Positions 11,681 to 29,246 of a DNA stretch of 64,000 nucleotides are shown one piece after another (position 1 is the first letter of the stretch; each line of letters begins with the position of its first letter). Origin of the DNA: a virus; IMG/VR virus record IMGVR_UViG_3300034105_003474, positions 64,001 through 128,000 of that record; one strand, given 5' to 3'. The position numbers and the translations under genes were made by a program. The notes below the pieces were generated by a model. That model had not been told where the DNA came from. It did not search any database and saw only the letters and a list, made by a program, of their open reading frames with translations.

Positions 11681-12997
11681 TTACGGTGCTGCTGGAGCGT
11701 TATTGAAGGTAACCTTCACGAACGACTCTGGACGCTTAACTGCAAGAGCCAAACGCTGTTCAGCAAGGATCACAATTGCGTTACGCACGAAGAAGTCTGC
11801 ATGCTGTTCGCTGATGCGAATGCTTGCTGACTCACGGTCGTAAATCTGTGCTCCCGTACCGAATGCTCCGATAAGTGCCTGACCTTCAGTCATTGCAGGG
11901 GTGTCCACAACAGGGATCCTCCACAACTTCTGCTCGCCACCCATTGCAACCGAGACTGCTACGACATAAGCGCCGTTGCCATCCTTGGTCAATTCAATGT
12001 CTTCCCAATCGTTCGGGTGCAATACAACGCCCGATGGCTCGTAGTAAGCCAAGAATGAGAGGGTAGCGGCACGACGGAGTGCGTCTGCCTTGGTGTCGCT
12101 CATACCTGCGGTTGCCGAGTAGAAACCCGACGACCAGTTGTAGGTCTGAATGCCAGTGGTGTTCATGATACCTGTAAGGTTCTCGCCCGTTCCTGAACCG
12201 TTAAGGATCTGTGCATCTTCCTGCAAGCGGAGACCGTACATCAACTCGTTGTCAATGATTGAGCGCAGTTGTGGCTCATCAGCAAGAACATTGCGGTGTG
12301 CGGCTTCCCAGTGAGCCAAGGTGCGAACAGGAGCCTGCTCACCAACGAAGGTGAAAGACGACTGTGGCTTGGCTGCAAATGCGGAACCATTACGCTCAGC
12401 AACAGGTGCCGCGTTGTTGGTGAATCCGGTCATGCGGAAGTATTCAATGATTGCAGCAGTCGTGGTGCGACTTGGGAACAAGTCACGAACACGCTTGGTG
12501 CGCATTGGAGGAACAACAAGGGCATCGCGTTGGATGGTGCCAAACTGTCCTGGGGTACCAGTTGGAAGTCCAGAGTACAAGTCTTTCTGACTGTAAACTT
12601 CACTGCTTGACTTGTATGGTGCTGGCATGTTTGCCGAACCACTTGCCAAAAGGGACTTGAACTCTGCTGAAGCAAGGAATGCCTCACCAATGCTCTTGCG
12701 ACCAAATGACTGTACTACTTGCTGTAGTTCCTGCGAAGCGTAAGCCGAAGCCTGTGCTACTGAGTCCTGTGGTTGTGAAGCCCATTGCTCAGCATCGCGC
12801 ATTGCCTCAAGACCCTCAACGAGTCCCTTGATTTCGCGGATGTCTGCCATGTTCTTGTCAAACGCGGTCTTTTGTTCTGCGGATACTACTACGGTGCCGT
12901 CTTCAATTTTGAAGTTGTCGGCGATGGTCTTGTTTTCTGCCATCTTGGTGCGCATTGCACCTTGAAGTTCAGTTAAACGGCTGTTGTCAAATGACAT
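11681..12997 (-). CDS. Major capsid protein, HK97 fold with N-terminal delta (scaffold) domain
   Basis: Coiled-coil N-terminus, EDAQILNGSGTGENLTGI, LWRIPVV, FVRNAIVILAEQR. AGGAG RBS 8 nt before ATG 12997. Confidence 0.95.
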   Translation of the reverse strand: MSFDNSRLTELQGAMRTKMAENKTIADNFKIEDGTVVVSAEQKTAFDKNMADIREIKGLVEGLEAMRDAEQWASQPQDSVAQASAYASQELQQVVQSFGRKSIGEAFLASAEFKSLLASGSANMPAPYKSSSEVYSQKDLYSGLPTGTPGQFGTIQRDALVVPPMRTKRVRDLFPSRTTTAAIIEYFRMTGFTNNAAPVAERNGSAFAAKPQSSFTFVGEQAPVRTLAHWEAAHRNVLADEPQLRSIIDNELMYGLRLQEDAQILNGSGTGENLTGIMNTTGIQTYNWSSGFYSATAGMSDTKADALRRAATLSFLAYYEPSGVVLHPNDWEDIELTKDGNGAYVVAVSVAMGGEQKLWRIPVVDTPAMTEGQALIGAFGTGAQIYDRESASIRISEQHADFFVRNAIVILAEQRLALAVKRPESFVKVTFNNAPAAP

Positions 12998-13096
12998 GTT
13001 GTTCACTCCTAGTGAATTGGATTTGGTTGGTGATTACTTATGTTTTTATTGCAGACTTCGGTAAGCACCTAGTCCAGTTACTATTACTGTAATACG

Positions 13097-13130: not shown

Positions 13131-14405
13131 CTATAAAATCAGACTATTTGAGTAATGTCGTTTGACCACTTTTGGGCAACATCCTTTGGAATATTTGACT
13201 CCGTATTCGCCTTCTTGGAATCCAACCCACTTTTTGCTCGTTTTACGGTTCCTCCATGGGTGATCCAACGGAAGTAGATCGTTGTCATCAAAGTATTTTA
13301 CATCGGCTGGTTTGTCGGAGTTCAGCAACGCCAAAAACTTGTAGACACGCTTCTTTGCAACATCTTTTGAACCATCTTCCAAGCCTCGTAAGAACACTAT
13401 TTTTAGGTCACGAAGGTTAGTTTTTGCTGTAGGTTTTGCTTTGGCGTTGTTGTTTCTTACTCGTACAGCCAAATCGTTGATATCGCTACTAGTCACGGTT
13501 GGTGGCTTCTTCTTAGGTTTTGGAACACCCTTAAAAGAGAGCACCCCCTCCCCGAATAAAGACTTACCCGGATTTGGGTACTGTGCAGCCTGTTGATTAT
13601 GCAGATTCCGTGCATATGTATCGGCATCTTGTATGTTTGAAAACTTACCTAAATGCTGACCGCTTCTTTGGTAGTGCTTAATGGCTTCTCGGTCGCTTAC
13701 TATTACGCCACTCCCATTAGGTCTTTTGATTACCGTAGGGATGACAACAGCCGTATTCCCTTCGGTGATTGTCATGGAACGAACCGTGCTGATAGACCCG
13801 TCGCGATTTTTCACAACAGGGCGATTATTTAAATCTATATTGCCTTTGGTTATTTCACCCTTTGGTCGTTTCTCCTGTTTAGGTGAAACCCGTGTATCAT
13901 CTGCACCACCCGGTGTGGACGCAACATAGCCGTCACCGTCGCCATCAATTGGTTTATTCCCACTACTGTCAACAGAACCACCAATGGGTGTACCTAAAAC
14001 TTTTTTCCCAAATTTGGAACCTTGTCGTCTTGGGTTGTTCCTAGGGCTGTTATCCCCTCGGATACCTGTTACACGGTTGTAGTCAGACACATTCGTGCAA
14101 GGAAGCCAAACCAGTTTTCCATCCCGTGCCGTATAGCGACGAATACCTATACATCCAAGATTGCGTGCACGGATACGGGCAGACTCAGGGTCACTGAAAG
14201 TATCAGGGTCTGTGGAACGGCTAACAAAGTTAACGAAACCCTTCTGCTCTACAGGTTTTTCTAAAGTCTGCTTTTTGTTCATGCCTTTGATGTACTCGGC
14301 AGGATTTTGATTTTTCACTATTGTAAAGTAATAAAAATCAGCCTTCTCGGCAGGGGAGAAGGTCTGTATCAGAGAGGCTAATTCTCTTGATTCTTTTGGT
14401 GTCAT
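13131..14405 (-). CDS. Multi-domain head-module protein (LGCxG..WLPC module, DGDGDG motif, GNIDLNNRP domain, DNDLLP..HP domain)
   Basis: Shares modules with the adjacent 431-aa protein. Confidence 0.65.
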   Translation of the reverse strand: MTPKESRELASLIQTFSPAEKADFYYFTIVKNQNPAEYIKGMNKKQTLEKPVEQKGFVNFVSRSTDPDTFSDPESARIRARNLGCIGIRRYTARDGKLVWLPCTNVSDYNRVTGIRGDNSPRNNPRRQGSKFGKKVLGTPIGGSVDSSGNKPIDGDGDGYVASTPGGADDTRVSPKQEKRPKGEITKGNIDLNNRPVVKNRDGSISTVRSMTITEGNTAVVIPTVIKRPNGSGVIVSDREAIKHYQRSGQHLGKFSNIQDADTYARNLHNQQAAQYPNPGKSLFGEGVLSFKGVPKPKKKPPTVTSSDINDLAVRVRNNNAKAKPTAKTNLRDLKIVFLRGLEDGSKDVAKKRVYKFLALLNSDKPADVKYFDDNDLLPLDHPWRNRKTSKKWVGFQEGEYGVKYSKGCCPKVVKRHYSNSLIL

Positions 14406-15697
14406 TCTGCACTCTCCTCAACAGCAAGCATTGACCTATCAAGAATAAGAATCACATTTGGCGAAACAGGGGAGCCAGAAACATCAGCAACAAATCCGTT
14501 GGAAACTCTCAAATTCAACCTAGAACCTCTTACCCCTTTAGAGACCAAAACTCTCCCGATATCGTCATCCCCATAAAAGGATGTTATTCCCTTTTTCACT
14601 CTCTCGCGATGTCCTGTTACTTCATCTGCGAAGTCTTCGCGTTCCATCAAAAAATCTGGAGGGATAGCAACTTTTATAACTTCACCTTTTCTTAGATTCC
14701 CCTGATCGTCAAACCCACCTTCGGCATAAACCTCGGCACTTTCTCTGTCTAGTGAGAAATGTATACCGTTACCGTGAGCACCCAATCCTGCAAAATAATC
14801 ACCTTTTCTGAAACCATCTGCCAGATCTTTGGCTTCAACAATAACTTCGTCATTTTCTGTATCAACGATGCTTGCAATCCCGCGATACGCAATAGTCCAT
14901 CCCTTTTTTTCTAGACTTGCCATTTCCAAAGATGAAACAACTTTTGGTAGACCTGTAAATCCCTGCATCTCAGCAATCATTTCCAATTGAATATCAGGCT
15001 TAACATCATTTTTTATTTTACTGAGTCTTTTGTTGTACTCTTTTCCGCCGTCTGATTTTTTGAATTCCTGAGCGTCTTTGCCAAAAAGTTTTCCCAATTG
15101 TTTTGTTATGTCTTTAGCCATTTTATTTTTACTATTCGCGATCGTGCTAGGAGCAACAGGAATATTGTCTTCTCCGTCGGGACCAGTAGTGAACCCGTCG
15201 CTATCGCCGTCAAACTCTGCTACACCACCAATAGGGCGACCTAAAGACTTGCCGGAAAACGAGCCAGTTACAAGCCCACCACCCGGCAAGGTTGCGATAC
15301 CAGAAATAGGTTTCTCGTCAAGGTTCTCCCAACCCCGTTTGGGTGCTTTGTGGTTGCAAACCGCATAATACTTTTTCCCTGCAAGAAGGATCGTTCGGAC
15401 ACCACCACAACCACGAGCCTTAGAAATAGCGACAGCATCAGCACGATTCTCGTAATATGCATCAGACTTTGTTTCTAAACGCTTTGTCCTTTGAACCATT
15501 TTGGGCAACGGCTTCTTCTTTTTGGAAGCACGAACTTTCAGGTATTCGTCTTTACCTTTTTTGATTGCTTCATATTCTTCACGCGAGGCGCAAGGCATCC
15601 AGCCTTTACCGTCTTCGTATACGCCTTGGCATCCAAGCATGCGTGCAACACGAAGAGCCTGATCGCGCGTTGTTTTATTCTTCTCGTCTTCAGACAT
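14402..15697 (-). CDS. Head-module protein with two DUF3721-like repeats and a C-terminal ADP-ribosyltransferase-like domain
   Basis: A..LGC.G...WMPC and A..RGCGG...YAVC repeats; C-terminal IAYRG...GNGIHFS...AEVYA pattern. Confidence 0.55.
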   Translation of the reverse strand: MSEDEKNKTTRDQALRVARMLGCQGVYEDGKGWMPCASREEYEAIKKGKDEYLKVRASKKKKPLPKMVQRTKRLETKSDAYYENRADAVAISKARGCGGVRTILLAGKKYYAVCNHKAPKRGWENLDEKPISGIATLPGGGLVTGSFSGKSLGRPIGGVAEFDGDSDGFTTGPDGEDNIPVAPSTIANSKNKMAKDITKQLGKLFGKDAQEFKKSDGGKEYNKRLSKIKNDVKPDIQLEMIAEMQGFTGLPKVVSSLEMASLEKKGWTIAYRGIASIVDTENDEVIVEAKDLADGFRKGDYFAGLGAHGNGIHFSLDRESAEVYAEGGFDDQGNLRKGEVIKVAIPPDFLMEREDFADEVTGHRERVKKGITSFYGDDDIGRVLVSKGVRGSRLNLRVSNGFVADVSGSPVSPNVILILDRSMLAVEESAE

Positions 15698-15960
15698 TAT
15701 TCTTTTTCTTTTTTAGATATTTTTTCAACCTCTGAAGCATATTCCATAGACATCGCGTACTGATCAAATAGTTCATCTATTTTGTCCGCATTCTCTTTAT
15801 TCATCAGATATGAGACCATTGACTCAAGGTCGCCATCTTTTCCGTTTTCGTTTGCATACCCGTAGGCAATGGCAATAATTTTAGAACGTGTTTCAGGGTT
15901 CTTTACTGTCGTTAGCAGTTGATTTTTGATTGAGTTTTTTTGTTCTGTTGTGAGTTTCAT
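15697..15960 (-). CDS. Small protein, candidate immunity partner of the upstream GNAT-like effector
   Basis: 87 aa, stop/start overlaps with both neighbours. Confidence 0.55.
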   Translation of the reverse strand: MKLTTEQKNSIKNQLLTTVKNPETRSKIIAIAYGYANENGKDGDLESMVSYLMNKENADKIDELFDQYAMSMEYASEVEKISKKEKE

Positions 15961-18755
15961 TACGCCAACCTTGGTGGTTCTACTCGTATTCTAGGGCGAG
16001 CAATTTTTGCTTTCTTGGGAAGTTTCTGACCAATTTTTTGTTCAGCAAAAGATAGCGTTCCACCACCAAATCCAAGATTTGCTTTAAACCATTGTTTCAC
16101 ATATTCCATCTTTTCCCTGTCACCAGTAGGATCATCCAAAGCAAAGATTATGTCTTGATGCTGATACTGCTTACCACCTCTTGCTTGTGCAAGGATTGAT
16201 TTGATTCGCGCATATTCTGCGTCATTATTTATCAATCCGCCAGCACCAAAATCCTCATAAAATTTGAGAGGCGACTGAAGCACTTGTAGGTCTCTATCGG
16301 TCAAACCATAGTTTCTTTTGAATCCAACACGAGCCCAAACATACTGACCATCATCGGCTGCGTTCACATTTGCTTTAGTGACACCTATTTGCTTCAGATA
16401 GAGAAACGCATGTTGGTTATAAATTGTTTGAATATCAGCACCCCTATCAATTTTGCTTGTTACAAACATTGAATTTTGGCTTACGATACCCTGCGACACG
16501 CTTACGCTCCGAGACGAAGTAGCGATTTTTGCTCTTATAACTTCACCATTTGCGTTAATCTCGTCAAACTGAACCTGAACTTGAAACCCATTTTGGGGAG
16601 ACACTGTTGCCGTAGCACGGTAAAGTTTCCCGTTCTTACCTTCAATTCTTTGGTGAGAATAAGCCTGTTTCAAGTACTCTGCCTTTTGCGGAGCAGTGAG
16701 TCTTCCCCATTTTACGGGTGTCATGTCTTCATATGGTGCACCACCGTTTGGGTGCCGTTGCTTAAGATACTTAGCAAGTTTTCCTTGACGACGTTCAATC
16801 GCCTCGTTCACCTGATCATTGATCTTCTTCGCTACATCTTCTGGAAGCGGTCTAGGAATATTTGTTGCATCTGTGTTGAAAACAAAACCTTGTTTCCTTC
16901 TTTCTGATGCTTTCCGTATTTCTGGTCCTAATGCTTCTATCAACTGAATATGACCTTCATATTTTCCAATATCGGATTGCAGTTGAGCAATTTTTTTCAT
17001 TGTTTCAACACGGTTGAATTCTTTTACTTCTGGAGTATTGCCAAGAGGTGAACGCATAAGTCTGAATTCTGCGCTGAGTTGTGTTTCTAATTCCGCAAGT
17101 TTGGTTCGCGCACCTGCAACTCCACCTTGCGGTCTTACATATCCAATATATTTTCTTTTCGCTTCGGTAACTAAAGCCGATACATCAGCATTGGGATTTG
17201 CCCTCAGTAAATCTGCAACTCTTGAAAGTTCTTTTTGGAAGTTTCGTACCGCAAGTTGGCGACCTTCATTTTGGTTAAACAGTGCTTGATCGGCTGCTAA
17301 GCCAAGTTGTCCCAAAAGTTTTGGATCTCGCATTTGAAGTAATACTTCTTCAATAAGATCTTCATCTTCTTTTTTGAATTTCGCCGCTTCCATCTTGGGG
17401 GCAACATGCTTTAGTTCATCTGGCACATCCCTAACATCGCGTCTTGTCGGAGCATTGAAAGGTTCGTCAATTGGGTTTGGCACGCTTGACGGTTTCGGGG
17501 CAGGTGTTTCTCTTCTGTCGGAAGGCAGTTTATTGTGTTTCTCTACTTCTTTCCAAGCATTGATAACGTCATTGAGTTCTTCTTTTAATTCACGCACATT
17601 CATTTGTTCGTTTGCACCAGAAACAACATCAAGGGGACTCAAATCACCCCTATTCTGTGCTTGCTGTATGCGATCAAGTTGTGCTTGATGTATCAAAATA
17701 TTTCTTTTTGCAAGGTTTAGAGCGTTTGACCTTGGGTTCTGATCTGTTTGATTTATATCAGGGAAGTTAATTGGATCGTTTATTATTCTTAAACGTGCGT
17801 TCAATACATCTCTGTTGATTCGTTCAACAAAAGTTTCATCATTTAGCACATTATTCAAGTTCATGTGCCTTATTTTTTTGGGGCGAGCAGCCTCTGCCCT
17901 AACCTCTTCGGAACGAGCGGCATTGTCGCTTTCTCCGCGTGGAGCAGGTCGCGGAACTCGTCTTTGTTCTGATTCGGCATCAAGCATCGCACCAATGTCG
18001 CCTTCGGGTTTCTTTCTAGGGCGACGAGGTTTAACCACCTTTGGTTCTACAACTGGTTTTTCAACAATGTTTTGTGCTTGTTGTCTTGGTGCTTTAGGCT
18101 TGTTTGTTGCTTCAACAACTGCACGACGACGGCGACGAGCAGGTGCTTCACCAGTACGAGGTGCACCGGGTTGTTCAATCTCACGATCCATGCGTCGTTG
18201 TTCTGATTCTCTAACATTTGGCGCACGCCTTCTCTGTGGTGCACGAGGAGCAGGTGGAGTAGGGGTTAACTCTCTTGGAGTGGCAGGTGCATCAACGGAT
18301 GGTTGTCGGGTAACAACAGTTCGCCTACGGGCACCACGAGGACTTGGGGTATCGGAAACTTCTAATCTGTCTGCAACACCACGCAAACCTCGCTCTAGGC
18401 GACCTGCGCCACCGCTTTGAGGATTAAGTCTTGCAAGTATTCGTCGTTCACGACGAGCAATACGACGACCACGGCGAGCATCATCAACATTCTCTAAGCG
18501 TTGACCAATATCTGATATTTGATTAGCGATGCGTCGTGCGACACCCCAACCGCAAGACCGACCAAAGCGATCGGTTATCTGTCCGCCATACCGTGTCCCC
18601 GTTGGACAGCGCCAGCCTCCACGACGGTTGGTGCCGGGTATAGAAAGACTTGGATCCCACATGGCGCGAACAGCCTTGACTTCATAAGCAATAGTTGACG
18701 TGTTCCGTTCGCTAAGAAAAGATTTTGCCTTAAAGTCGGCGATATTCTGAAGCAT
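15960..18755 (-). CDS. Polymorphic head-module protein: conserved RCPxG module plus C-terminal GNAT-like acetyltransferase domain
   Basis: WDPSLSIPGTNRRGGWRCPTGTRYGGQITDRFGRSCGWG; C-terminal DRGADIQ...LKQIGV...VNAADDGQYVWARVGF. Confidence 0.65.
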   Translation of the reverse strand: MLQNIADFKAKSFLSERNTSTIAYEVKAVRAMWDPSLSIPGTNRRGGWRCPTGTRYGGQITDRFGRSCGWGVARRIANQISDIGQRLENVDDARRGRRIARRERRILARLNPQSGGAGRLERGLRGVADRLEVSDTPSPRGARRRTVVTRQPSVDAPATPRELTPTPPAPRAPQRRRAPNVRESEQRRMDREIEQPGAPRTGEAPARRRRRAVVEATNKPKAPRQQAQNIVEKPVVEPKVVKPRRPRKKPEGDIGAMLDAESEQRRVPRPAPRGESDNAARSEEVRAEAARPKKIRHMNLNNVLNDETFVERINRDVLNARLRIINDPINFPDINQTDQNPRSNALNLAKRNILIHQAQLDRIQQAQNRGDLSPLDVVSGANEQMNVRELKEELNDVINAWKEVEKHNKLPSDRRETPAPKPSSVPNPIDEPFNAPTRRDVRDVPDELKHVAPKMEAAKFKKEDEDLIEEVLLQMRDPKLLGQLGLAADQALFNQNEGRQLAVRNFQKELSRVADLLRANPNADVSALVTEAKRKYIGYVRPQGGVAGARTKLAELETQLSAEFRLMRSPLGNTPEVKEFNRVETMKKIAQLQSDIGKYEGHIQLIEALGPEIRKASERRKQGFVFNTDATNIPRPLPEDVAKKINDQVNEAIERRQGKLAKYLKQRHPNGGAPYEDMTPVKWGRLTAPQKAEYLKQAYSHQRIEGKNGKLYRATATVSPQNGFQVQVQFDEINANGEVIRAKIATSSRSVSVSQGIVSQNSMFVTSKIDRGADIQTIYNQHAFLYLKQIGVTKANVNAADDGQYVWARVGFKRNYGLTDRDLQVLQSPLKFYEDFGAGGLINNDAEYARIKSILAQARGGKQYQHQDIIFALDDPTGDREKMEYVKQWFKANLGFGGGTLSFAEQKIGQKLPKKAKIARPRIRVEPPRLA

Positions 18756-18758
18756 GGT

Positions 18759-19076
18759 TTAAGCCTTAAAACTTTTTTTATTTGGAAGAGATTTAATTTG
18801 ATTTTTATACATTTCTTCAGTTACTTGCCCATCAGAACTGTATTGTGCGGACATTGAATTAAGACGGTAAAGAATATATTCCATTCCGCTTCCCTCTAAA
18901 GGGATCTCGTTTCGTGCCGACGATTCTGAAAGAATTTCAATAAGTTGATCAACAAGTTCTTTATCGGAAGCGTGTATTTCTACAAGTCCATCAATATTTT
19001 TTCCAGCGCAAGACCCATTTACCTTGTTTGTAAATGGATCCATGAATTGACCTATAAAAAACTCTTTCATGATCAC
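18759..19076 (-). CDS. Small AT-rich gene, candidate immunity protein
   Basis: 105 aa, overlaps the stop codon of the upstream kinase gene. Confidence 0.55.
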   Translation of the reverse strand: MIMKEFFIGQFMDPFTNKVNGSCAGKNIDGLVEIHASDKELVDQLIEILSESSARNEIPLEGSGMEYILYRLNSMSAQYSSDGQVTEEMYKNQIKSLPNKKSFKA

Positions 19077-21940
19077 CTTTGGTTACTTGGAATTATATTG
19101 ACTATCTCATTTTCGGCGTTGCGAAGGTTTGCAAGACTTCGTACCATGCCATCATAAAGTGCTCCTGCTCGGGCTTTATTTGAGTCAGTCTTACTTACTT
19201 TCTGCAATGCGTCTGTTATGAATTGTTCACGACCGACAGCAAGTGTTTTTTCTGTTTGCACAACAACCTGTCTGTACACTTCTTGAATTCGCGCATAAGT
19301 TTCACGCCTTTGCGCGTCTGACATAGCGGGTAGTGCGGTGCGCATTGTGGCAAGAATGTCCTGATCCATTGAGAAACCCCGTTGGTAACGATCAAACAGC
19401 CCTCCGTGTGCCCTTCCAGCCCAACCCAAGTCCATCGGAACGACATGCGCTAATTTCTTGCCGTCTGGTAATTCCACTACACGACCCATACCGTTGCCTC
19501 CGTGGCGGTCGCTAACACCAAGAATATAGTTGGCTAGAACATTGGACAATCTTTCAGGAAGACCTTTATCTGGAAGAGCGTTCAGGGCTCCTTTGTTGAA
19601 ATCGTACCCACCAGCAGCACCGCCGATTACTGCCCCTTCAGGCACGTCGTTGTGTGCCAGAGGGATCATGATGTAAGGGGTTCCTTTTCGGACTGTTCCA
19701 AGAGGCTTTCGTACATCTGCTTCAAGTTTACCGTCTTGAATTGCTCCGTCTTCCAAGATCCCTACAGCAGCCAAGTAGTTCCATCCAATGAGTTCGCCGA
19801 CATTGTCGGCAGGTTTTGCAGCCTTGAAAACCCATCCCTGATTAGTCGGATTTCCATTTTCATCACGCAAAAAGTAAATTTTAGTTACACCTACAGCGCC
19901 ACCGTTGGGTTGTACTTTTTTGAAACGCTTATTTGTGTCTCGTGGGTCTGATGAAGCGTTTGCCTCTATGGCAATGTGCATGAATTTTGCTGGAACTTTT
20001 TGTATGTCTCCACCATTTTTTATATGGTCAATTGCTTTTTGTTCCGTATTAATTGTTCGGTCTTCTTCGGAAACAAACTTTCCGATAGGGGAGTTCCTTC
20101 TGTCTATCTTTAACTTACCATGAGCATTTTTTGATCTTGCAAACTTACGGAATGGTGATTTCTTTTGTCCTTGAGCCGCTGCTCTTGGTGCAGTAGGTGG
20201 TTTAGGTGTCGTTGGTGAATTGTCTTCTGTCGCTGGGAATTCCCCTGAAGGACCGCCAGCAGCAGCATAAATAAATTCTGCGAAGTTGTTGTAGTCACTT
20301 ACCGTATGGCGACCGCCATAGCCCTGTTCGTAAGAGTTCCCATCTGGTTCGCGTAGAGTAAATTTTGTTAATTTTCCATTACCGTCAAACTCTGGAGTAA
20401 GCGTGTAACCATTTCGTGTCCACATAGTTTTATCTGTGTTAAGAACCCAATTTGAATTTAAATTCAACTTTTCCAAATTGTTCAGTGGTTGATTATTAGG
20501 TGCTTGTCCCTGTTGTTGAGCAGGACGTGCTGGTCTCACAGGTCGCGCTGGTGCTGGCTCTGGAACATCATCGGCGGTTGGTTTGCGTGTAGCGCTACGA
20601 GCGGCACCTGCTGTTGTTGCCTTCTTGCGACGACCACGATTATTCCGTGGGCGACGAGCCTGTGGTGTTGGCGGTTCAAAATCTTGTGGTGCACTACGAC
20701 CGTGAGCATCTTTCCAAGCGTCACGAAGATTAGGTTTGTTGATTGCATACCATTCACGCCGTGTCAGCATTCCTGCGTTTCCACCACCTGCGCGAATCTC
20801 ACGAACACGCTTAGCGTATTCATCGTATTTTCTTAATACATACGGGCTGAAACCTTCGGTTGCACTTGCGTCTGATGCTTCGCGTGCTGTGAGTACATCA
20901 ACGTTTTCTGCTTGTGGTGCAACGCGTGGGCGTGGCTGTGGTCGTCTTTGTCCTGCTGGCGCTGGTCGGCGTGCAGGACGAGGTGTTGACGCAGGCGTTG
21001 GCGCTGTTTCAGGAATAACATCGCGTCTCCTGTTTTGTGGTCTACGAGCCGATGGTGCACCTGCTTCAGGTAGTACATCTTCGCTTCTTTCGCGACCACC
21101 ATTTCCGTTAACAACTCTGTCTAAAACACTTCCGGGTCGCAGGTCATCTGCTATGCGGTTGCCAAGTTCAGCAAAACCAGGACCGCCTCTTCGCTGTCGC
21201 GGTTTAGCACCACCTTCAAGACGATCAGCAATACCGCGCAATCCACCTTCAACGCGACCAGTCTCAGGAACTCCACCAAGCCGTCTAATCATTCGTGCGT
21301 TACGACGGTCAAGGCGACGCTTTCGTTTGTCGTCGTCTCGTTGTTCTAAGCGTTCACCGATGTCGGCGATTTGGTTGGCGATGCGACGCGCTACGCCCCA
21401 ACCGCACGAACGACCAAAACGATCGGTGATCTGTCCGCCATATCGTGTCCCTACAGGGCATCGGAAACCACCACGACGATTCGTGCCGGGAATAGAAAGA
21501 CTCGGATCCCAAATTGCTCGCACACCTTTGATTTCAAAGTTGAAAGATGATTGGGTTTGGTCAGAGATAAATGATGAAGCCTTGAAACTCAGAACATTTT
21601 GGAATTCTTCGTTTGAAAACTCAGAAAGTAAAACCTCAGATATTGAAAGAACAGGAAGGTTTTTGGTTTCTACAATTTCCGGTTTAAGGAATGCAAGGTT
21701 TGCAACCTTTTTCTCTATCGCTGATCCTGATGGGCTTGGACCTTCAATAATTTTTGATGAGTCCATTGTTTGAACTAGTTCAGGTTTTGTTATAGGTGTT
21801 TTGCCATATTCTTGACGGAGAAATGTGGCAACTTCTTTAGCGGCTTCGGTCATTGGCTTGAAGGTGGATCCTTCAGGGGTCGTTGAGACGACCATAAATG
21901 GTGTGTTGTCGCGATTTTTGATAATGAAAACTAGGTTCAT
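19073..21940 (-). CDS. Polymorphic head-module protein: RCPxG module plus C-terminal HipA/PI3K-like kinase
   Basis: GGAVG loop, WVFK, GELIG, DRHGGN, PMD. Confidence 0.75.
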   Translation of the reverse strand: MNLVFIIKNRDNTPFMVVSTTPEGSTFKPMTEAAKEVATFLRQEYGKTPITKPELVQTMDSSKIIEGPSPSGSAIEKKVANLAFLKPEIVETKNLPVLSISEVLLSEFSNEEFQNVLSFKASSFISDQTQSSFNFEIKGVRAIWDPSLSIPGTNRRGGFRCPVGTRYGGQITDRFGRSCGWGVARRIANQIADIGERLEQRDDDKRKRRLDRRNARMIRRLGGVPETGRVEGGLRGIADRLEGGAKPRQRRGGPGFAELGNRIADDLRPGSVLDRVVNGNGGRERSEDVLPEAGAPSARRPQNRRRDVIPETAPTPASTPRPARRPAPAGQRRPQPRPRVAPQAENVDVLTAREASDASATEGFSPYVLRKYDEYAKRVREIRAGGGNAGMLTRREWYAINKPNLRDAWKDAHGRSAPQDFEPPTPQARRPRNNRGRRKKATTAGAARSATRKPTADDVPEPAPARPVRPARPAQQQGQAPNNQPLNNLEKLNLNSNWVLNTDKTMWTRNGYTLTPEFDGNGKLTKFTLREPDGNSYEQGYGGRHTVSDYNNFAEFIYAAAGGPSGEFPATEDNSPTTPKPPTAPRAAAQGQKKSPFRKFARSKNAHGKLKIDRRNSPIGKFVSEEDRTINTEQKAIDHIKNGGDIQKVPAKFMHIAIEANASSDPRDTNKRFKKVQPNGGAVGVTKIYFLRDENGNPTNQGWVFKAAKPADNVGELIGWNYLAAVGILEDGAIQDGKLEADVRKPLGTVRKGTPYIMIPLAHNDVPEGAVIGGAAGGYDFNKGALNALPDKGLPERLSNVLANYILGVSDRHGGNGMGRVVELPDGKKLAHVVPMDLGWAGRAHGGLFDRYQRGFSMDQDILATMRTALPAMSDAQRRETYARIQEVYRQVVVQTEKTLAVGREQFITDALQKVSKTDSNKARAGALYDGMVRSLANLRNAENEIVNIIPSNQR

Positions 21941-22062
21941 TGTTTACTTTCCACATTCGTGAAGATATTCAGCAAGCCATGCAAATCTTGAGGTTGCATT
22001 ATCGCTACCGTAAAATGGTATCACTAAGTGGGTGATATTAATTTTAGGTTGATGTCAATATA

Positions 22063-22359
22063 TTATTTGTTATCTAATTTTTTGTGACCCAAGGCAACTA
22101 GGAAATTATTAATTTTATCCTTATTTGAACCCTTGTACTCAAGTATTTCTGCATGACGGTATGAGTACCCATGCAACATACTCTCAAGGTCAGCCCTATC
22201 CGACGAGCCTTTCTTGACCGCCAAAAAGTGTTCATTGTCCTTTTTGTCTGAATCTTTATCCTTTGAGTAATACTTAATAATCCCTTTATCGTCCTCAACT
22301 ATGACGAGTGGATCCACCTGAACTAGTGGGTCTTTGGAGGTGATGATCGCTGCTCTCAT
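22063..22359 (-). CDS. Small protein, candidate kinase immunity protein (homolog of 26749-27066)
   Basis: MRAAIIT...PLVIVEDDKGI...NEHFL...GYSY. Confidence 0.6.
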   Translation of the reverse strand: MRAAIITSKDPLVQVDPLVIVEDDKGIIKYYSKDKDSDKKDNEHFLAVKKGSSDRADLESMLHGYSYRHAEILEYKGSNKDKINNFLVALGHKKLDNK

Positions 22360-22364
22360 GGTTC

Positions 22365-25037
22365 CTATGATCCTATAATCAAATCAGCAAGTCTGCCGGG
22401 GTCAACATCTGTTATATATTTCATTTTTCTTTGCGGTTTTACGCCAACCCTCAAAAGAGCCTGATCCCCACCCCTAGGGTTAGCGGTTCCATCCCCACCG
22501 GCTTTCAGTACATCTTCAACAACATTCATATACGGGTTTTTACGCTCTGCCTCACGGATGGACTTCTGAACCTCTTCAACGGCTAAGAGTATCTCGCGCC
22601 GACTTATTTGCCTATCTTTGAATTGCTGTCTCAATGTTGCAAGCATCTCGTTTCTTCTACCACCAACATCGTTGCCTAAAAAGCCTCGTAATCCTTCGTC
22701 GTTGCCATCATAATTTTCGTGAGCCCGCCCACCCCAGTTGACATCAAACCCAAGAGAAGGATCAATTGGGACGAACCGCTTCTTACCACTGGAGTCAGTC
22801 GCTACAAAGAAGTTCCCTCCATGGCGGTCTCTGTTGACCATGATGTAGTCCAAAAGTGTCGCTCTAACACGATCGGCAGGTTTTATTTGCGACACGGCTA
22901 CTTGATTTCTTCCGTCTGTCAGCACCCCATCAACGTAGTTCCCTGCGTGTTCATAAACAATAGCCCTACCAGCGCTGTTAGGGGCACCCGGTCCACCTTT
23001 TTGTTTCCCATCCATTCGCACACCACCGACAGGCATGCCAAGTCTACCAGCAAGATTATTGCCGATCACTTCATGAATGTCTTCGTTTTCTGCATGGGCA
23101 CCACTTTGGTATTTTAAGAAAAACTTGTTCCCAGTGATGGCGTCGGTAAACATATGCATATTGTTGGGAATGTTGCCGTTAACACCACCACCAGCATCTG
23201 ATTTAGAGAATCTTGTTGTTGCACCGTGTAGTGCTTCACCCAATAACTCATCAGGGACATCAGCCAAATCTCCACCTTTTTCTAGGTGGTCAATTGCTTG
23301 CTCCTTGGTATCCATACCTTTGTTCCCCAATGGAACGCTTTTCACATCAGGCAAACCGTCTTCACCTAATTTGTTCAGTTTTTCTGGTGCATGACCATCT
23401 TTTGCTTTTGGTGGTGAGACATCCCATCCACCTTCTGGTTCTGGTATGTCTGCTGGTCGTTGTGGTGGTTGCGCTGGTGACTGTACGCGTGGAGCGTTCT
23501 GGTCGTTGACATTATTATTTGGTACAACAACTTGATTTCGTTGCCTAAATTCAATAGCAGCATCAATTTCAGCAAGTCTTAATTCGGCAGCGGAAACTCC
23601 GTCTTTTATTTTTTCTTTTTGTCCCCACATTCGCAATAAATTATCTCTGGCTTCGTCTCTTTCTCGTTCGCTACCATTCTTTTTACTCTGCCAGTCTTCA
23701 AAGGCTCTATCAAATCCTGCTTGAGCCTCTTTGAGAAGTTCTTGATCTCTAATTTTCTTTCCCAAAACTTCTTCTTTGGACATGTTGCGCAAATTATTGT
23801 AAGCGTTCGGCTTGTATCTTTCAATTTCCCCTTCTACTGCTTTGACTAAAGCCTCGTCTCTTTGCTGGTCAAACTCCCTGCGAGGGTTTATGTCTCTTGC
23901 TGGCAGTGGCGGTGGACCTGCTCGTCGTGCAGGTGCTTCAGGTTCAGGCTGTGGCGCTCCTGCTTGTTGCCCAAATATTTGTTGGTTAACAAAATTGCCA
24001 CGAGCATTACGCTTATTGTTGTCATCGTAATACCGACCAAACCTTCTCTCTAGTTCGGCTTTTTCTTCGCCTTCAGGGAAGTCTGGTTTACGCCAATACG
24101 CATCTTCGGGTAATCCGCGAAGATCGCCAAATCGGTTAACAACATTACGGATAGAACGATCGTCCGGTATGCTCCCTCCCAACTCGTCTGCTGTTGGGTT
24201 CCATGCGGGTGGTGGTGGAATTGGTGATGATTGTTCCGCTGGTCGTTCTGGTGGTTTTGGTGCGGGTTTTCTGCGTGGCACCTTTGTCGGTACAGGTTTT
24301 GAACCGTCAACAAAATCTGCTTCAGGTTTTCTTCTAACAGTTCTTTTTGCGCCTTGTTGTGTAGCGTTTCGTCGGCGTCGTCGTGGAGCATTTGGTGCGG
24401 GTGGTTCACCTGTGCGTGGTGCGCCGGGTTGAACTATTTCTCTGTCCATTCTTCGTGCTTCTGATTCACGGAGATTTCCTCTTCTCCGAGGTGCCCGTGC
24501 TGGTTCTCTTGCTGGTTGTTCAGCATCTCCGCCAACAGGGATTCTTGGACGAGCAGGAGGTTCTATGCGTGCAGGATTTTGAACAGCGATTCGTGGACGA
24601 GCAGGAGCGCGTGGAGTAGTTACTGGTTTTCCAGTTGCTCCACCATCTAACGCGTCTGCCAAACCGCGAGCGCCACGCTCAAGTAAGCCGGGTTTATCTT
24701 GACGAGCCAAAAACCGTTGCACACGCGCATTCCGTTTTGCCAAACGAGCATTTCGTTTACGGTCGTCAACATTCTCTAGCCGTTCACCAATATCTGCTAT
24801 CTGGTTTGCGATTCTCCGAGCAACACCCCACCCGCAAGACCGTCCATAACGGTCTGTAATTTGACCGCCGTATCTTGTGCCAACAGGGCAACGCCAACCG
24901 CCACGACGATTCGTGCCCGGAATAGACAAACTTGGATCCCAAAGCGCACGAGCGCCTTTAACATCATAATTAAAAGTACTTGCAGTTTGCTCAGCGAGAA
25001 ACGCGAGCGCCTTGTAATTCACTTCATTCTTGAGCAT
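22365..25037 (-). CDS. Polymorphic head-module protein: RCPxG module plus C-terminal HipA/PI3K-like kinase
   Basis: GGGVNG loop, FFLK, HEVIG, LDYIMVNRDRHGGN, PID. Confidence 0.8.
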   Translation of the reverse strand: MLKNEVNYKALAFLAEQTASTFNYDVKGARALWDPSLSIPGTNRRGGWRCPVGTRYGGQITDRYGRSCGWGVARRIANQIADIGERLENVDDRKRNARLAKRNARVQRFLARQDKPGLLERGARGLADALDGGATGKPVTTPRAPARPRIAVQNPARIEPPARPRIPVGGDAEQPAREPARAPRRRGNLRESEARRMDREIVQPGAPRTGEPPAPNAPRRRRRNATQQGAKRTVRRKPEADFVDGSKPVPTKVPRRKPAPKPPERPAEQSSPIPPPPAWNPTADELGGSIPDDRSIRNVVNRFGDLRGLPEDAYWRKPDFPEGEEKAELERRFGRYYDDNNKRNARGNFVNQQIFGQQAGAPQPEPEAPARRAGPPPLPARDINPRREFDQQRDEALVKAVEGEIERYKPNAYNNLRNMSKEEVLGKKIRDQELLKEAQAGFDRAFEDWQSKKNGSERERDEARDNLLRMWGQKEKIKDGVSAAELRLAEIDAAIEFRQRNQVVVPNNNVNDQNAPRVQSPAQPPQRPADIPEPEGGWDVSPPKAKDGHAPEKLNKLGEDGLPDVKSVPLGNKGMDTKEQAIDHLEKGGDLADVPDELLGEALHGATTRFSKSDAGGGVNGNIPNNMHMFTDAITGNKFFLKYQSGAHAENEDIHEVIGNNLAGRLGMPVGGVRMDGKQKGGPGAPNSAGRAIVYEHAGNYVDGVLTDGRNQVAVSQIKPADRVRATLLDYIMVNRDRHGGNFFVATDSSGKKRFVPIDPSLGFDVNWGGRAHENYDGNDEGLRGFLGNDVGGRRNEMLATLRQQFKDRQISRREILLAVEEVQKSIREAERKNPYMNVVEDVLKAGGDGTANPRGGDQALLRVGVKPQRKMKYITDVDPGRLADLIIGS

Positions 25038-26756
25038 TTATTTTTTCTTCTTTGCGCTGACCAAGTCTGGCTTAATGAAGGTTTCGTACTGCCAACGAGG
25101 TGCTGTTCTTTCAATACCGTCAAGACCTGTGTAAGTAACAAGTTCCAACGGCTTAGGAACATTTCCTGTATCGGTGATAAACTTAAATGCACCTTCTGAG
25201 TTTTTGGCAAAATTCTCAATATTTGAAATAATGTTATCTTTTGTGCTTGATTCTGCAAGAGAGTTAATCATTCGTGGGAACTTGCGCTTCTCGCCAATCG
25301 TAAATGGTCGTGAACGCTCAATACTTACCACTACACCGTTTGGTGCAACAAACGCAATTTTACTCATTGAAGGACCACCCAATAGTGCCAGATCATCTGC
25401 TCCTATATCAGCAGGTAGTTGAATGGCGCGAACCATTGCGCCGTCAACCATGTCAGGGTTCTCGCTAAAAGAACGAAGAACAGATGAAGCAACAACAGGA
25501 CGCAAAACCACTCCGTCTCTGCGGATCATTCTGCCTTCACCTTTTGGTGCGCCTTTAAGCAAGTTGATTGAATCCGATACTGAACGGTTGAATTTATCTT
25601 TTTGGAATGCACCTGTTCGTGGTATCTGTGCCATGCGCTGAATTTGAATTGTTCGCGCTGCTGTCGGTGAACCTTCTAATACTTCGGACAGATTCTCTGC
25701 TCGCGCTTGTGGAAGTTTTGGTGATGCTGTCGGGCGCATTGCTCGCCTTATGAGTTCTAGCGGACCTGGTATTTCAAACAACTGCGCACCACAAGTGGAG
25801 AAACGATTGTCCGTGAAACGACCACCAAATTCAAAACCGGCAGGGCATCGTGCTTGACGCCTGCGATTAGGCTTGAGCCTGCTGAGCGCCCCACCGCCAC
25901 CGCCGGGAATAAGTGCGCCATAAAGTCTTGAGCGAATAGGTGCGCTGAATGGGGATATGTTGCCCGGTGTTACTACAGAACCAACTGCCTGAGCCGCTCT
26001 ACCAAGTCCACTTGAAGAACCAACAAGACCTGCTTTGATTTCCATGTCTTCAGCGTCATCTTTTTCAACACGGTATCCACCGCCACGCTTCTTGTATTCG
26101 CGAACAAGCCAAGCGTTAGCGTAAGCAGAAGGGTATACATTGAATTTCTTTTTTGCTTCGGCTTTTACTCGCGCATAAAGTTCTTTGTCCGTTGGGATAT
26201 TCGCACCTTTTAATGTGGTCTCATCAGATTTGAATGTGGACACATTGATCGGCTTGTTTTCTTCTCGGTTACCCGCTGTTTCTGCACGACGCTTTCTGCG
26301 AACAGCGGAATCAATTTCTTCTGCGGACATTCTCATCGCTGTAGATTTCTTTACACACTTAGGGTATTTACCTGAATCTGCGTCTCCGCGACCACATGAC
26401 TCAAATCCGCCACCTTTTTTCGGGCGTGAAATATCAACCCATTCTTCTTCAAACCATTTCCCTAATCCACCGCGCTTGGATTCATCACCGATAAAGGTTT
26501 CTGCACCTAGTTTTGATGTACGAGACTTTAGGTAAAGTTTTGCTTTAAAGTTTAGAAGAGCCCTACTTCCGTCAAGCGGAGTTTTACGAACATCTGATCC
26601 TTTAGTGAAAAGGAATTTTGTTTTTGCATTATCAGGGTTAAAATAAATTTCCTCACCAGAGACAATATTCGTCCGTTTCATAGCAGTTTTCATACGCATA
26701 GACATACGGAGTTTTCTCGCAAAATACTCAAAGTCTTGGTTGAGATAACTACTCAT
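25038..26756 (-). CDS. Multi-domain head-module protein (GLGKWFEEEWVD domain, DUF5872-like YPSAYA domain, divergent RCPAG module)
   Basis: RVKAEAKKKFNVYPSAYANAWLVREYKKRGG; RCPAGFEFGGRFTDNRFSTCG. Confidence 0.65.
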   Translation of the reverse strand: MSSYLNQDFEYFARKLRMSMRMKTAMKRTNIVSGEEIYFNPDNAKTKFLFTKGSDVRKTPLDGSRALLNFKAKLYLKSRTSKLGAETFIGDESKRGGLGKWFEEEWVDISRPKKGGGFESCGRGDADSGKYPKCVKKSTAMRMSAEEIDSAVRRKRRAETAGNREENKPINVSTFKSDETTLKGANIPTDKELYARVKAEAKKKFNVYPSAYANAWLVREYKKRGGGYRVEKDDAEDMEIKAGLVGSSSGLGRAAQAVGSVVTPGNISPFSAPIRSRLYGALIPGGGGGALSRLKPNRRRQARCPAGFEFGGRFTDNRFSTCGAQLFEIPGPLELIRRAMRPTASPKLPQARAENLSEVLEGSPTAARTIQIQRMAQIPRTGAFQKDKFNRSVSDSINLLKGAPKGEGRMIRRDGVVLRPVVASSVLRSFSENPDMVDGAMVRAIQLPADIGADDLALLGGPSMSKIAFVAPNGVVVSIERSRPFTIGEKRKFPRMINSLAESSTKDNIISNIENFAKNSEGAFKFITDTGNVPKPLELVTYTGLDGIERTAPRWQYETFIKPDLVSAKKKK

Positions 26757-27066
26757 TTTTTGCCGATTCTTTCGGTTCTTCAGGTTCCGCTATTTCTGCG
26801 GGCAAGGTTGTCTTCCACTTTTTAGCCAACTGCCTTAAAAGTGTAATATTTTTTTCATCCAGCACATTAGTACTAACACTATGATACGACATTCCCGAGG
26901 TTGCTTTTTCAATAGTGTCCCTTTGGGACAGAAACAATTCGTTTGTCAAACTTGATGCGAACTTCGGGTCAGGGGCTACCACACCAAAAATGCCGTAATC
27001 CCCCTCAAGAAGAACATATGGGATACCTGAAACATCGGCACTCGGGGTAACTAGGGCGTATCTCAT
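26749..27066 (-). CDS. Small protein, candidate kinase immunity protein (homolog of 22063-22359)
   Basis: MRYALVT...PYVLLEGDYGI...NELFL...GMSY; ATGA overlap with the kinase stop codon. Confidence 0.6.
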   Translation of the reverse strand: MRYALVTPSADVSGIPYVLLEGDYGIFGVVAPDPKFASSLTNELFLSQRDTIEKATSGMSYHSVSTNVLDEKNITLLRQLAKKWKTTLPAEIAEPEEPKESAKNE

Positions 27067-28916
27067 ACAACACTCGCGACTATATCTTCCAACGCTGAGT
27101 CAGCCTTGAGTTTTGGTGGTTTTACAACAAGGTCTGCCAATTGTTTTGGGGTCATTGCTTGCATCTCTCTTAAGCGTGACGACGCCTTTCCGATGTCTGC
27201 CTGCATCTTTTCCATTTCTTTCAACTTTTCGGGAGACATCGCCCATTCTCCTATCAAATTACGATCTTTCAGCATCTCGTCAAGTTGACTCAAGAGACGA
27301 TTTTCCAATGAATCTGCGTCAATTTTCTTTATATCTTGGAGAACTTTTTCAGCATCCTCAACCAGTTTTGCATGCTTCTCAACTGTCCCACCGTGGCGAC
27401 TATTCAGTTCTTGACCAAGATAACCATATTGAAGACCGCCAGCAAACTTTTCTGCTGTTTCGCTGAAATCAAAAACGTTGAGAATAAAACTATGGTCAAT
27501 GGGGACTGCGTCCACACCATCAGAGTTTTCAGCAAAAAGGATGTTTCCGCTATGCCTGTCACCATTAGCCATAGCAATATCCATGATTTGCATATGGAGT
27601 AGTTTGCGACTGTCCACCTTTGCCAATGTTTCAGGGGTGGCAGAGAGTATTTGTCCCTCATATGAGTTGTGAACCAAATCGGTTACTACTCCCATGGCTG
27701 CCTGTGTCGGGGATGCTTGAACAACTCGCAAAGATGAAGATGGATACCCAAAGTCTTCTGTCATGGAAACAGCAAGAACTTCGCTCGCTGGCTCATACCA
27801 TCGGGATGCTCCTCCCTTGGTCAGAGGGGCATTGCTTAACGGGGATTTTTTATCCCAAAGTTGTGTGCGTGAAGCGTATTTAACGCCCAACATTTGACCT
27901 GTAGTTCTATCACGCAAGCGGTTCATTCCAACCACTCCCCCACCAGTGCCAATAAGTTCAAACCTCTTCAGTTCCGCAATGTTCCCATCCTCGTCGTAAA
28001 CATCAATATTTTCTAGGATTGCGTCAAGAACCAGAGTGTCGCTGATTTCGTTCAGTTTCCCGCCATTAGCGATATGTTGTGAAGCCTTTTCACCAGTATC
28101 AATGTTTTTATCCACGCTAGGTAAATCACGGGCAATGTTCCTACCGTTGGCATCAGCAACACCAATTTGTGGGTCAAAGTCTTTAGCCTTGGCAATAGCG
28201 CTGTTGCCTTTCTTGAACCCGCTAGGGGATTTGACCACGGGTGGATCAGCCTTTGGATCGTCTTTTTTATCTTTGCGACGCTTTAATGTCGCTAAGAGGA
28301 AATTCTTTGCATCAACGGTGGCGTCTCGTTTAATCTTCCCCGCTACTGCTTCCAACTGTTCTTTTTTCTTGTCAGATATTTTCCCGCGCCTATGAAGCGA
28401 GTCAGTAGCAAAGTCCAATAGTTGCGCACCGCCAGACTTCAATAAAACCATACCGAAAAGCGTAGATTGTGTCATTGAATCTGAACCATCTGCGTACATG
28501 TAATCCATTGTTTGCAGGGCAATCATCGCCGCTGCTTTTGAACCATTTTTTACTTTTTCAGATTTGAAAATTACCCGAGCGCCATCAATCAATTTTCCAG
28601 CCATGGAAGCCGCCCCGCGTGCTGCTGATTCAGCAGAAGGGGTGAGGCAGTTGGACATCTGCATGTCGGTGAACTGATTTGCGTTAGGTGTACCGGGTGG
28701 GCATCGCAACTTACCCAAAGAATCAACTATCACCCCCGCAGCACGCGCCGCTCTATGACCAACAGAGGTTAACTCTGGTCGGTCTTTTACAGTAGGTCCA
28801 AGGAAACCTTTGAACAGCAAAACATTCTCTTGAACAGCAGCAACAGATTTGCGGTATTCTGCAACTCTCTCGTTTGCGTCAAAAGCGCGAGACGATTTAA
28901 TCATCGCCTCAACCAA
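27063..28916 (-). CDS. Polymorphic head-module protein: divergent RCPPG module plus C-terminal HipA/PI3K-like kinase
   Basis: RCPPGTPNANQFTD..SNC; GGGVVG, GVK, SEVLA, DIAMANGDRHSGN, PIDH. Confidence 0.78.
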   Translation of the reverse strand: MVEAMIKSSRAFDANERVAEYRKSVAAVQENVLLFKGFLGPTVKDRPELTSVGHRAARAAGVIVDSLGKLRCPPGTPNANQFTDMQMSNCLTPSAESAARGAASMAGKLIDGARVIFKSEKVKNGSKAAAMIALQTMDYMYADGSDSMTQSTLFGMVLLKSGGAQLLDFATDSLHRRGKISDKKKEQLEAVAGKIKRDATVDAKNFLLATLKRRKDKKDDPKADPPVVKSPSGFKKGNSAIAKAKDFDPQIGVADANGRNIARDLPSVDKNIDTGEKASQHIANGGKLNEISDTLVLDAILENIDVYDEDGNIAELKRFELIGTGGGVVGMNRLRDRTTGQMLGVKYASRTQLWDKKSPLSNAPLTKGGASRWYEPASEVLAVSMTEDFGYPSSSLRVVQASPTQAAMGVVTDLVHNSYEGQILSATPETLAKVDSRKLLHMQIMDIAMANGDRHSGNILFAENSDGVDAVPIDHSFILNVFDFSETAEKFAGGLQYGYLGQELNSRHGGTVEKHAKLVEDAEKVLQDIKKIDADSLENRLLSQLDEMLKDRNLIGEWAMSPEKLKEMEKMQADIGKASSRLREMQAMTPKQLADLVVKPPKLKADSALEDIVASVV

Positions 28917-29246
28917 CTATTTGTCGCTAGATTCTGACGCTTTGTTAAAGAAAGAAAGTGGAACAACATCATCATCCTCTGCATCTTTTTTCTTAGAAGG
29001 CTTTTTCGTTTCCACTTTGGTTTCTTGTGCATCCTCAACAGGTTCATCAACGCTGATCTCTACTGATGCAGGTGTTTCAACTTCCAACACTGCTTCTTCA
29101 ACGACAACTACTTCCTCTTTGACTTCAACCTCAACAACAGAAATCTGAACTTCAGGCGTCTCAACTACGGGCACTTGTTCTTGTTTTGTGTCAAAAGCAA
29201 GACCAGAAGTGTTCACTGAGTCAAAAGGTTGGTTTTCTTTTTTCAT
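28917..29246 (-). CDS. Acidic low-complexity protein
   Basis: Glu/Val-rich 109-aa ORF tightly packed in the operon. Confidence 0.65.
   Translation of the reverse strand: MKKENQPFDSVNTSGLAFDTKQEQVPVVETPEVQISVVEVEVKEEVVVVEEAVLEVETPASVEISVDEPVEDAQETKVETKKPSKKKDAEDDDVVPLSFFNKASESSDK

Follow-up and report, generated by a model that had tools for sequence, protein, structure and literature searches.

A candidate polymorphic enzyme/partner array in the head operon of a freshwater myovirus

In the polymorphic toxin systems of bacteria, the C-terminal domain is replaced by recombination together with the adjacent cognate small gene (PMC3482391). The MuF toxins of temperate phages have a comparable build, their genes lying in the head and packaging module directly after the portal gene and joining a conserved N-terminus to a variable C-terminal effector, with a downstream open reading frame (ORF) of <150 aa taken as immunity gene (PMC5576092). 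The polyvalent proteins, likewise found in head and packaging context, carry 2–15 effector domains per polypeptide, among them ADP-ribosyltransferase (ART), kinase and GNAT domains, and are predicted to travel in the capsid and to enter the cell along with the DNA (PMC5512222). Here, we describe a related locus in a 64,000-nt stretch of viral DNA (hereafter the window), bases 64001–128000 of the 144,873-bp IMG/VR record IMGVR_UViG_3300034105_003474, which CheckV rates as complete. The interval between the prohead protease and major capsid genes is filled by 13 co-oriented, mostly translationally coupled minus-strand genes, which very likely form a polymorphic array of enzyme/partner cassettes on a new carrier.

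The array works like a polymorphic toxin/immunity system and is neither a MuF toxin nor a classical polyvalent protein. As in the bacterial systems, a conserved shared N-terminus is combined with exchanged C-termini and a co-varying downstream partner; binding of the partner is predicted from a model, and the vehicle would be the virion instead of a secretion system. The carrier is not MuF, as a first-pass annotation made from the letters of the DNA had stated: in contrast to the MuF toxins, the array proteins have no MuF domain (no Pfam or PHROG match), and a MuF-like domain is found on the portal. This portal fusion means that the usual MuF carrier is present, and it bears no toxin domain. 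Further differences from the MuF toxins are the location between the protease and capsid genes, the four or five full-length tandem genes in place of one, the predominance of PI3/4K-like kinases among the effectors, and an apparently lytic phage with a module absent from bacterial genomes. The polyvalent proteins share the ART-PolyVal-type ART, the kinase and the GNAT domains with the array, whose proteins, however, have one recognisable catalytic domain each on a common carrier, a PI3/4K-like kinase as opposed to the truncated Ser/Thr/Tyr kinase, and dedicated partner genes (the term 'immunity protein' occurs 0 times in PMC5512222). Distant relatives of the g931 C-terminal domain do have the multi-domain build of polyvalent proteins, such as the metagenomic P0180, a polyvalent-style giant of 4528 aa with eight copies of the g931-type GNAT-like domain and a C-terminal PI3/4K-like kinase. 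The first-pass annotation had also not recognised the system as a described one. This stands for the array itself, which finds no mention in the searched literature, freshwater phage papers included; it does not extend to capsid-delivered ART, kinase and GNAT effectors, which had been predicted (PMC5512222), or to phage MuF polymorphic toxins, which are described (PMC5576092).

Carrier module and exchangeable C-termini

The gene map agrees with the earlier description of some 16 kb of co-oriented, mostly coupled genes between protease and capsid. On the minus strand the order is portal, S78 protease, g492, g109, g617, s105a, g572, g890, s98, g955, s105b, g931, s87, g431, g424 and capsid (Table 1). 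Most junctions within the array are overlaps of 1–8 nt or gaps of ≤5 nt, and only two gaps are larger (~122 nt each, at s98/g955 and between g424 and the major capsid protein gene). The five large proteins reported to share a Cys motif were recovered, the pattern RCPxG-x(5-9)-TD-x(3-7)-C giving exactly five matches in the six-frame translation of the window, all in array genes, and 0 in 200 shuffles; as a small amendment, the motif is lacking in g424, the array gene nearest to the capsid gene. The near-identical module attributed to three of these proteins is likewise present in g890, g955 and g931 (67% identity over 130 aa) and corresponds to three 283-nt direct repeats. Of its ~130 positions, 39 are invariant among 17 diverse sequences. 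Searching metagenomes with the g890 module returned 422 module-bearing proteins of 788–1484 aa, and in 185,579 prokaryote species genomes the module was absent in prophage context. Two weak partial matches in prokaryote genomes were rejected as kin; they adjoin a DEAD helicase and a chorismate-binding enzyme and are non-phage.

Conservation of the array was followed in 48 IMG/VR loci, recovered with the g890 module, in which plus-strand ORFs were called by script and compared with the window proteins. The slot order is identical in all 48, including relatives with 56–60% portal identity, the module is 52–100% identical across them, and RCPxG..TD..C is retained in 158 of 160 orthologs. Within each slot, the N-terminal 100–260 aa are 45–100% identical and the C-termini fall into many unrelated clusters. 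Invariant C-termini, named by the first-pass annotation as evidence against its own proposal, were not observed: the 160 module proteins form 42 C-terminal clusters, at least 11 of them in the g617 slot. The exception is g572, which has a conserved C-terminus and no partner gene. In one ortholog of g617 (L008:6600-7949, slot A) the alternative C-terminus has a Pfam DUF3626 match (1.3e-10) with a weak PASTA match behind it, and several further slot-A C-termini match no recognisable family.

Exchange of enzyme and partner cassettes by recombination between close relatives is visible in the DNA as sharp breakpoints. The relative closest in backbone, L005, is 93.9% identical to the window without interruption from position 35035 (portal) to 20529 (inside g955), and has no DNA match across the g955 kinase and s105b. 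The window segment 20167–18261, comprising the g955 C-terminus and s105b, is 94.7% identical to L011, a locus with a backbone identity of just 75–81%; the same cassette pattern is seen at 17442–15202. Cassettes also occur behind different carriers, as in L018 and L034, where a GNAT-type C-terminus and an s87-type partner follow a g955-type N-terminus. A corresponding association was found between partner family and C-terminal cluster in 79 non-identical pairs, with an adjusted mutual information (AMI) of 0.83 against a null maximum of 0.15 and within-slot values of 0.69–0.84, matched by 0 of 2000 shuffles; these shuffles ignore the kinship of the loci, and shared descent accounts for part of the association. 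Since relatedness of the loci inflates the AMI, the DNA comparison is the stronger evidence. The s87 family is paired with 12 of 12 non-identical cluster-2 C-termini; hhalign (96%) relates this family to the partners of the distant GNAT-like cluster 12. More generally, partner superfamilies track enzyme superfamilies (hhalign 96–97% for partners of related enzymes).

Enzymatic domains and small partner proteins

The kinase, GNAT-like and ART-like C-termini proposed earlier were borne out, the kinases by Pfam matches and residue conservation and the other two by fold models. Among the array kinases, only g617 exceeds the curated cut-off for Pfam PI3_PI4_kinase (1e-06, 29.3 bits vs 27.1); the same family is below threshold for g890 (17.7–19.2 bits) and g955 (13.7 bits), and both also match HipA_2 below threshold. 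Across 30 diverse C-termini from the window and its relatives, K97, E111, D192-R-H-x-x-N197 and D214 are invariant, corresponding to the ATP-binding Lys, the helix-C Glu, the DRHxxN catalytic loop and the metal-binding Asp. On these residues, the three C-termini very probably represent catalytically active members of the PI3/4K-like kinases. The g890 kinase further has 16 short stand-alone relatives, all without names. Sequence comparison of the kinase, GNAT and ART C-termini with PDB chains returned nothing meaningful.

The last 332 aa of g931 fold at a predicted local distance difference test (pLDDT) of 90.8 in AlphaFold2 (AF2), and every match listed for this model (top 50, Foldseek and VIA) is a GNAT or p300 acetyltransferase, the toxins TacT, AtaT and KacT being among them (Foldseek E ~1e-3; VIA Z 8.0–9.6, root-mean-square deviation (rmsd) 2.5–3.8 over 103–135 residues). 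R150, N181, G192, D203, G204, V207, W208 and G212 are invariant in the family, and the modelled C-terminus is assigned to the GNAT fold. Likewise, the last 232 aa of g431 fold at pLDDT 86, and the top Foldseek matches listed from the PDB (to rank 50) are all ARTs of the exotoxin A/diphtheria toxin/PARP kind (ExoA E 2.3e-4; best VIA match Z 7.4, rmsd 4.6, 160 aligned). Pfam ART-PolyVal matches in 3 of 52 homologs of this C-terminus (3e-4), the structure matches in BFVD bear the name ART-PolyVal, and the family has an invariant Y72-R73-G74, a G-x-G-I-Y/H-F motif and a near-invariant E229, resembling ART motifs. By its model and the family-level matches the g431 C-terminus is assigned an ART fold of ART-PolyVal type. 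In most relatives g431 and g424 are fused into one gene (377–560 aa, e.g. L003:19501-20388 and L007:19669-20388), and the closest relatives have this single gene without the ART domain. In the window (13131–15697, minus strand) the fused gene is split, its DUF3721 region duplicated and the ART domain appended to the first half. Because the closest relatives, with their fused g431–g424 gene, lack the domain, the cassette appears to have been gained recently.

Four of the large genes are each followed by an ORF of 87–105 aa (s105a, s98, s105b and s87), which confirms the earlier observation, and these ORFs are under purifying selection (dN/dS 0.03–0.37; s105a 0.03–0.19). Pfam gave nothing significant for the four proteins and g109, and the partner families as such have no Pfam match; a CesT-like match of g109 (E 0.11) and a FapA_N match of s87 (E 0.016) were dismissed as noise. 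Pairwise BLASTP among the four detected no similarity, and a profile comparison of s98 with s105a reached 66% probability only, so that homology of these two is at best weakly supported. Structure prediction gave a complex of the g890 kinase domain with s98, scoring 0.78 vs 0.09 for the best control; 58 of 80 solved complexes attain the mark applied, as do 2 of 110 mismatched pairs, a calibration that holds roughly for this one pair and its shallow custom alignments (30 + 10 rows). The runs have at least 59% of contacts in common, and s98 has a pLDDT of at least 81. Its confident interface comprises the Gly-rich loop (68–77), K97, D192, H194, N197 and D214, that is, the catalytic cleft. As s98 is modelled in the cleft and the partner co-varies with the C-terminus and not with the carrier, an inhibitor or immunity role of the small proteins is favoured over that of a packaging chaperone. 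A reading as type III secretion system chaperones was rejected on the same grounds. In combination, conserved carriers, variable enzymes, a small gene that swaps with the C-terminus and modelled binding at the active site uphold the polymorphic-toxin-like logic put forward in the first-pass annotation.

This logic, known from polymorphic toxin systems, could also serve competition. The injected enzymes would then be growth-arresting toxins aimed at rival-occupied cells or non-kin hosts, and the small proteins would provide immunity against superinfecting siblings. Toxins known to arrest growth and to have a cognate antitoxin occur among the GNAT and PI3/4K/HipA-like folds (TacT, AtaT and KacT being the ones matched), and the array pairs resemble HipA- and GNAT-type toxin–antitoxin pairs in these enzyme folds; unlike HipB, which is encoded upstream of HipA, the partner here lies downstream. 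The extreme diversity in one slot among close relatives and a partner modelled as blocking the active site speak for competition. The location of the partner genes in a late head operon speaks against it, as their products would come too late to protect from effectors that enter when superinfection begins. Signs of lysogeny are also missing, in contrast to the temperate phages that carry MuF toxins (PMC5576092): bacterial genomes lack the module, a search of the 145-kb record for tyrosine integrases (serine integrases lay outside that search) detected none, and the phage is apparently lytic. Nor were orphan cassette arrays observed. Taken together, we regard competition as an unlikely function of the array.

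Delivery with the virion and alternative roles

Myovirus proteins that are loaded into the head, released at ejection and directed at host proteins or defences are known from P1 (Dar; PMC12810830) and T4 (Alt, which is an ART, and the internal proteins; PMC5512222). In P1, DarA–Hdf pairs line the inner capsid wall, contact the DNA and are lost after ejection (PMC12810830, PMC5512222). The array proteins would resemble these in their delivery; no sequence relation of any of them to the carrier module was detected, however, and their genes neither form polymorphic cassettes nor come with cognate inhibitors. In the g431 C-terminal (ART-domain) family, a domain separate from the module, just one of 52 members matched DarA_N, and weakly.

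The module proteins are strongly basic (pI 9.6–10.1), their Arg/Pro-rich linkers having a net charge of +30 to +40, and adjoin the acidic g492 and g109 (pI 4.2–4.3), the former a candidate scaffold-like protein. By analogy, basic proteins beside acidic ones recall internal head proteins of basic character, which take the place of the scaffold and come to lie on the DNA. The Arg/Pro-rich linkers, charged at +30 to +40 in proteins of pI ~10, would also suit a core inside the head or a body that condenses DNA, comparable to the T4 internal proteins or the phiKZ inner body, with functional linkers and accessory enzymes, and the presence of a paralogous family inside the head operon with a non-polymorphic member (g572) points the same way. 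Still, the linkers are the least conserved part, whereas the catalytic residues of the kinases are invariant and the partner dedicated to each enzyme is maintained by purifying selection. Because of this pattern, selection appears to act on enzyme activity, and a chiefly structural role is judged improbable.

Two of the array proteins have relatives among proteins involved in ejection. Residues 158–288 of g424 are 44–56% identical to a domain in podovirus proteins, namely an 830-aa 'DNA transfer protein' at the P22 gp16 position in E. coli phage Bas106 and a 937-aa 'head protein' beside two 'internal virion proteins' in Salmonella phage SPN1S (all depositors' names). Among the structural matches of the g431 ART model are one chain of the cyanophage A4 pre-ejectosome, a solved structure (Z 6.8, rmsd 4.5, 129 aligned; PMC12002296), and a protease/MuF-like fusion of Microbacterium phage Schubert. 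From operon position, linkers, the g424 domain and the ART relatives we infer that virion delivery of the array proteins is plausible, with the chances evenly balanced.

The pairs may instead stay in the cytoplasm, as late enzyme/regulator pairs of toxin–antitoxin-like or anti-defence type at a permissive site of the head operon, with the module serving as oligomerisation or nucleic-acid-binding domain. In comparison with the PDB, the only match of the module profile was the zinc-ribbon ribosomal protein eL37 (E 0.01, weak), a weak lead hinting at a zinc-ribbon-like knuckle, and this resemblance to an RNA-binding protein would fit a cytoplasmic role. So would the unrelated head-module cargo of related cultured Gordonia myophages (lysin B, RNA ligase, HNH protein). 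Slot order and carrier are kept over deep divergence with only the C-termini varying, however, which is unlike a mere insertion hotspot; moreover, the long basic linkers adjoin acidic scaffold-like proteins, the g424 domain is shared with ejection proteins, and the ART relatives occur in MuF fusions and a pre-ejectosome. An unpackaged function is judged rather unlikely.

Several points weigh against a packaged and injected array. The module has neither a Pfam family nor a solved relative, and tblastn with g890 against 50,697 GenBank phage records gave zero matches, leaving it without a cultured relative. A myovirus needs no ejectosome, and homology to podovirus ejection proteins is by analogy only suggestive. 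The fold matches are middling (TM 0.2–0.4), and Z values of 7–9.6 are in a range where chance arrangements occur; catalytic residues were mapped for the kinases only, GNAT and ART being assigned by fold. To these are added the locus kinship and the shallow, single-pair complex model mentioned above. With these points included, the proposal as a whole, a polymorphic effector/inhibitor array in the head operon whose products are loaded and injected, is held to be slightly more probable than not.

In this proposal, each large protein would consist of the conserved RCPxG..TD..C carrier, an Arg/Pro-rich basic low-complexity linker and an exchangeable enzyme (kinase, GNAT-fold acyltransferase or ART). 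The small protein encoded downstream would bind the active site and silence the enzyme during its synthesis in late infection. Carrier module and basic linker would load the proteins into the prohead, beside the acidic scaffold-like protein and later the DNA. They would leave with the DNA and modify host proteins ahead of any phage gene expression, for takeover or counter-defence. The repeated modules would be available as homology anchors for cassette recombination, and an arms race with hosts or rival phages may drive the polymorphism. More tentatively, and with somewhat less than an even chance of being correct in full, a hitherto unrecognised capsid-loading module, RCPxG..TD..C with a polybasic linker behind it, might let widespread lytic freshwater actinophages inject kinases, an acyltransferase and an ART, each plugged by its cognate inhibitor until ejection, with the cassettes shuffled among co-infecting phages.

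Genomic context and significance

Tail sheath and baseplate genes in the record identify the phage as a myovirus. The record further encodes a large terminase, a ribonucleotide reductase, a DNA methyltransferase, a PAPS reductase and two WhiB proteins (26501–26692 and 62430–62630, record coordinates). WhiB serves as a marker of Actinobacteria phages (PMC6802176, PMC10914622), and the host of this WhiB-encoding freshwater myovirus is probably actinobacterial. The two WhiB-like genes and the PAPS reductase agree with the whiB- and cysH-encoding actinophage groups known from lake metagenomes. The nearest cultured capsid proteins, from Brevibacterium and Gordonia myophages, are 47–48% identical. 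In the Gordonia phage ChisanaKitsune (L050, 10.5–24 kb of its record), which belongs to these nearest capsid kin, the head module is also enlarged, but between portal and protease; according to the depositors' annotation this interval contains an RNA ligase, a VIP2-like ART toxin, a 970-aa HNH protein and lysin B.

The protease at the upstream boundary of the array has its S78 domain within the N-terminal ~250 aa, followed by a long C-terminal extension. In the distant relatives L021, L034 and L038 (e.g. L021:1126-3648) the prohead protease carries an inserted domain that has 81–85% identity with the last ~110 aa of g253, which directly follows the capsid gene (window 10838–11599, minus strand). 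From these alignments, the head-associated g253-type domain appears to move between the protease and a separate gene. Counts in a promoter and terminator scan of the array were not above shuffled expectation, and the sole plausible terminator in the protease-to-capsid stretch is a hairpin with a 10-bp stem (11647–11622, minus strand) directly after the capsid gene.

Table 1. Array genes and other annotated features of the window, with window coordinates
Feature	Position	Strand	Remarks
Portal, 734 aa	32978-35182	-	aa 486-730 match PHROG head morphogenesis (MuF/SPP1 gp7-type) families
Prohead serine protease, 700 aa	30779-32881	-	Pfam Peptidase_S78 6.4e-11; phrog_80 head maturation protease 3e-31
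g492	29246-30724	-	Acidic (pI 4.3), Cys-rich N-terminus, PepSY match; kept in all relatives
g109	28917-29246	-	Small, acidic (pI 4.2); position conserved, sequence divergent
g617	27063-28916	-	Slot A carrier and putative PI3/4K-like kinase; N-terminal ~210 aa with RCPPG..TD..C
s105a	26749-27066	-	Partner of g617 kinase; always with C-terminal cluster 3
g572	25038-26756	-	Diverged RCPAG..TD..C motif and DUF5872 region; non-polymorphic, no small partner gene
g890	22365-25037	-	Module aa 1-130, Arg/Pro-rich basic linker, putative PI3/4K-like kinase aa ~560-890
s98	22063-22359	-	Partner of g890 kinase; predicted in kinase active-site cleft
g955	19073-21940	-	110-aa N-terminal extension, module, basic linker, putative divergent PI3/4K-like kinase
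s105b	18759-19076	-	Partner of g955 kinase; travels with that kinase as single cassette
g931	15960-18755	-	Module, basic linker, helical region, modelled GNAT-fold domain aa ~700-915
s87	15697-15960	-	Partner of GNAT-type C-terminus
g431	14402-15697	-	Two DUF3721 Cys motifs and modelled ART-fold domain aa ~250-431 (ART-PolyVal type)
g424	13131-14405	-	Basic protein; aa 158-288 match podovirus ejection/'DNA transfer' protein domain
HK97-type major capsid protein	11681-13006	-	Pfam Phage_capsid 7.7e-48; downstream array boundary
PAPS reductase (cysH-like)	39535-40668	+	

If the array proteins are packaged, virulent phages of abundant freshwater bacteria would deliver modular, fast-evolving protein-modifying enzymes at DNA entry, a stage of infection almost unexplored outside T4, P1 and N4. 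The locus would give a new carrier domain for recognising virion cargo in metagenomes, at least 12 new small-protein families predicted to inhibit PI3/4K-like kinases and GNAT-type enzymes, and a natural system for enzyme/inhibitor co-evolution and recombination. The polymorphic-toxin principle would thereby be extended from secretion systems and the MuF proteins of temperate phages to the head operons of lytic phages. If the more tentative reading of an injected, plugged enzyme set holds, this would be the first polymorphic-toxin-type effector repertoire in virulent phages, together with a new family of PI3/4K-like kinase inhibitors.

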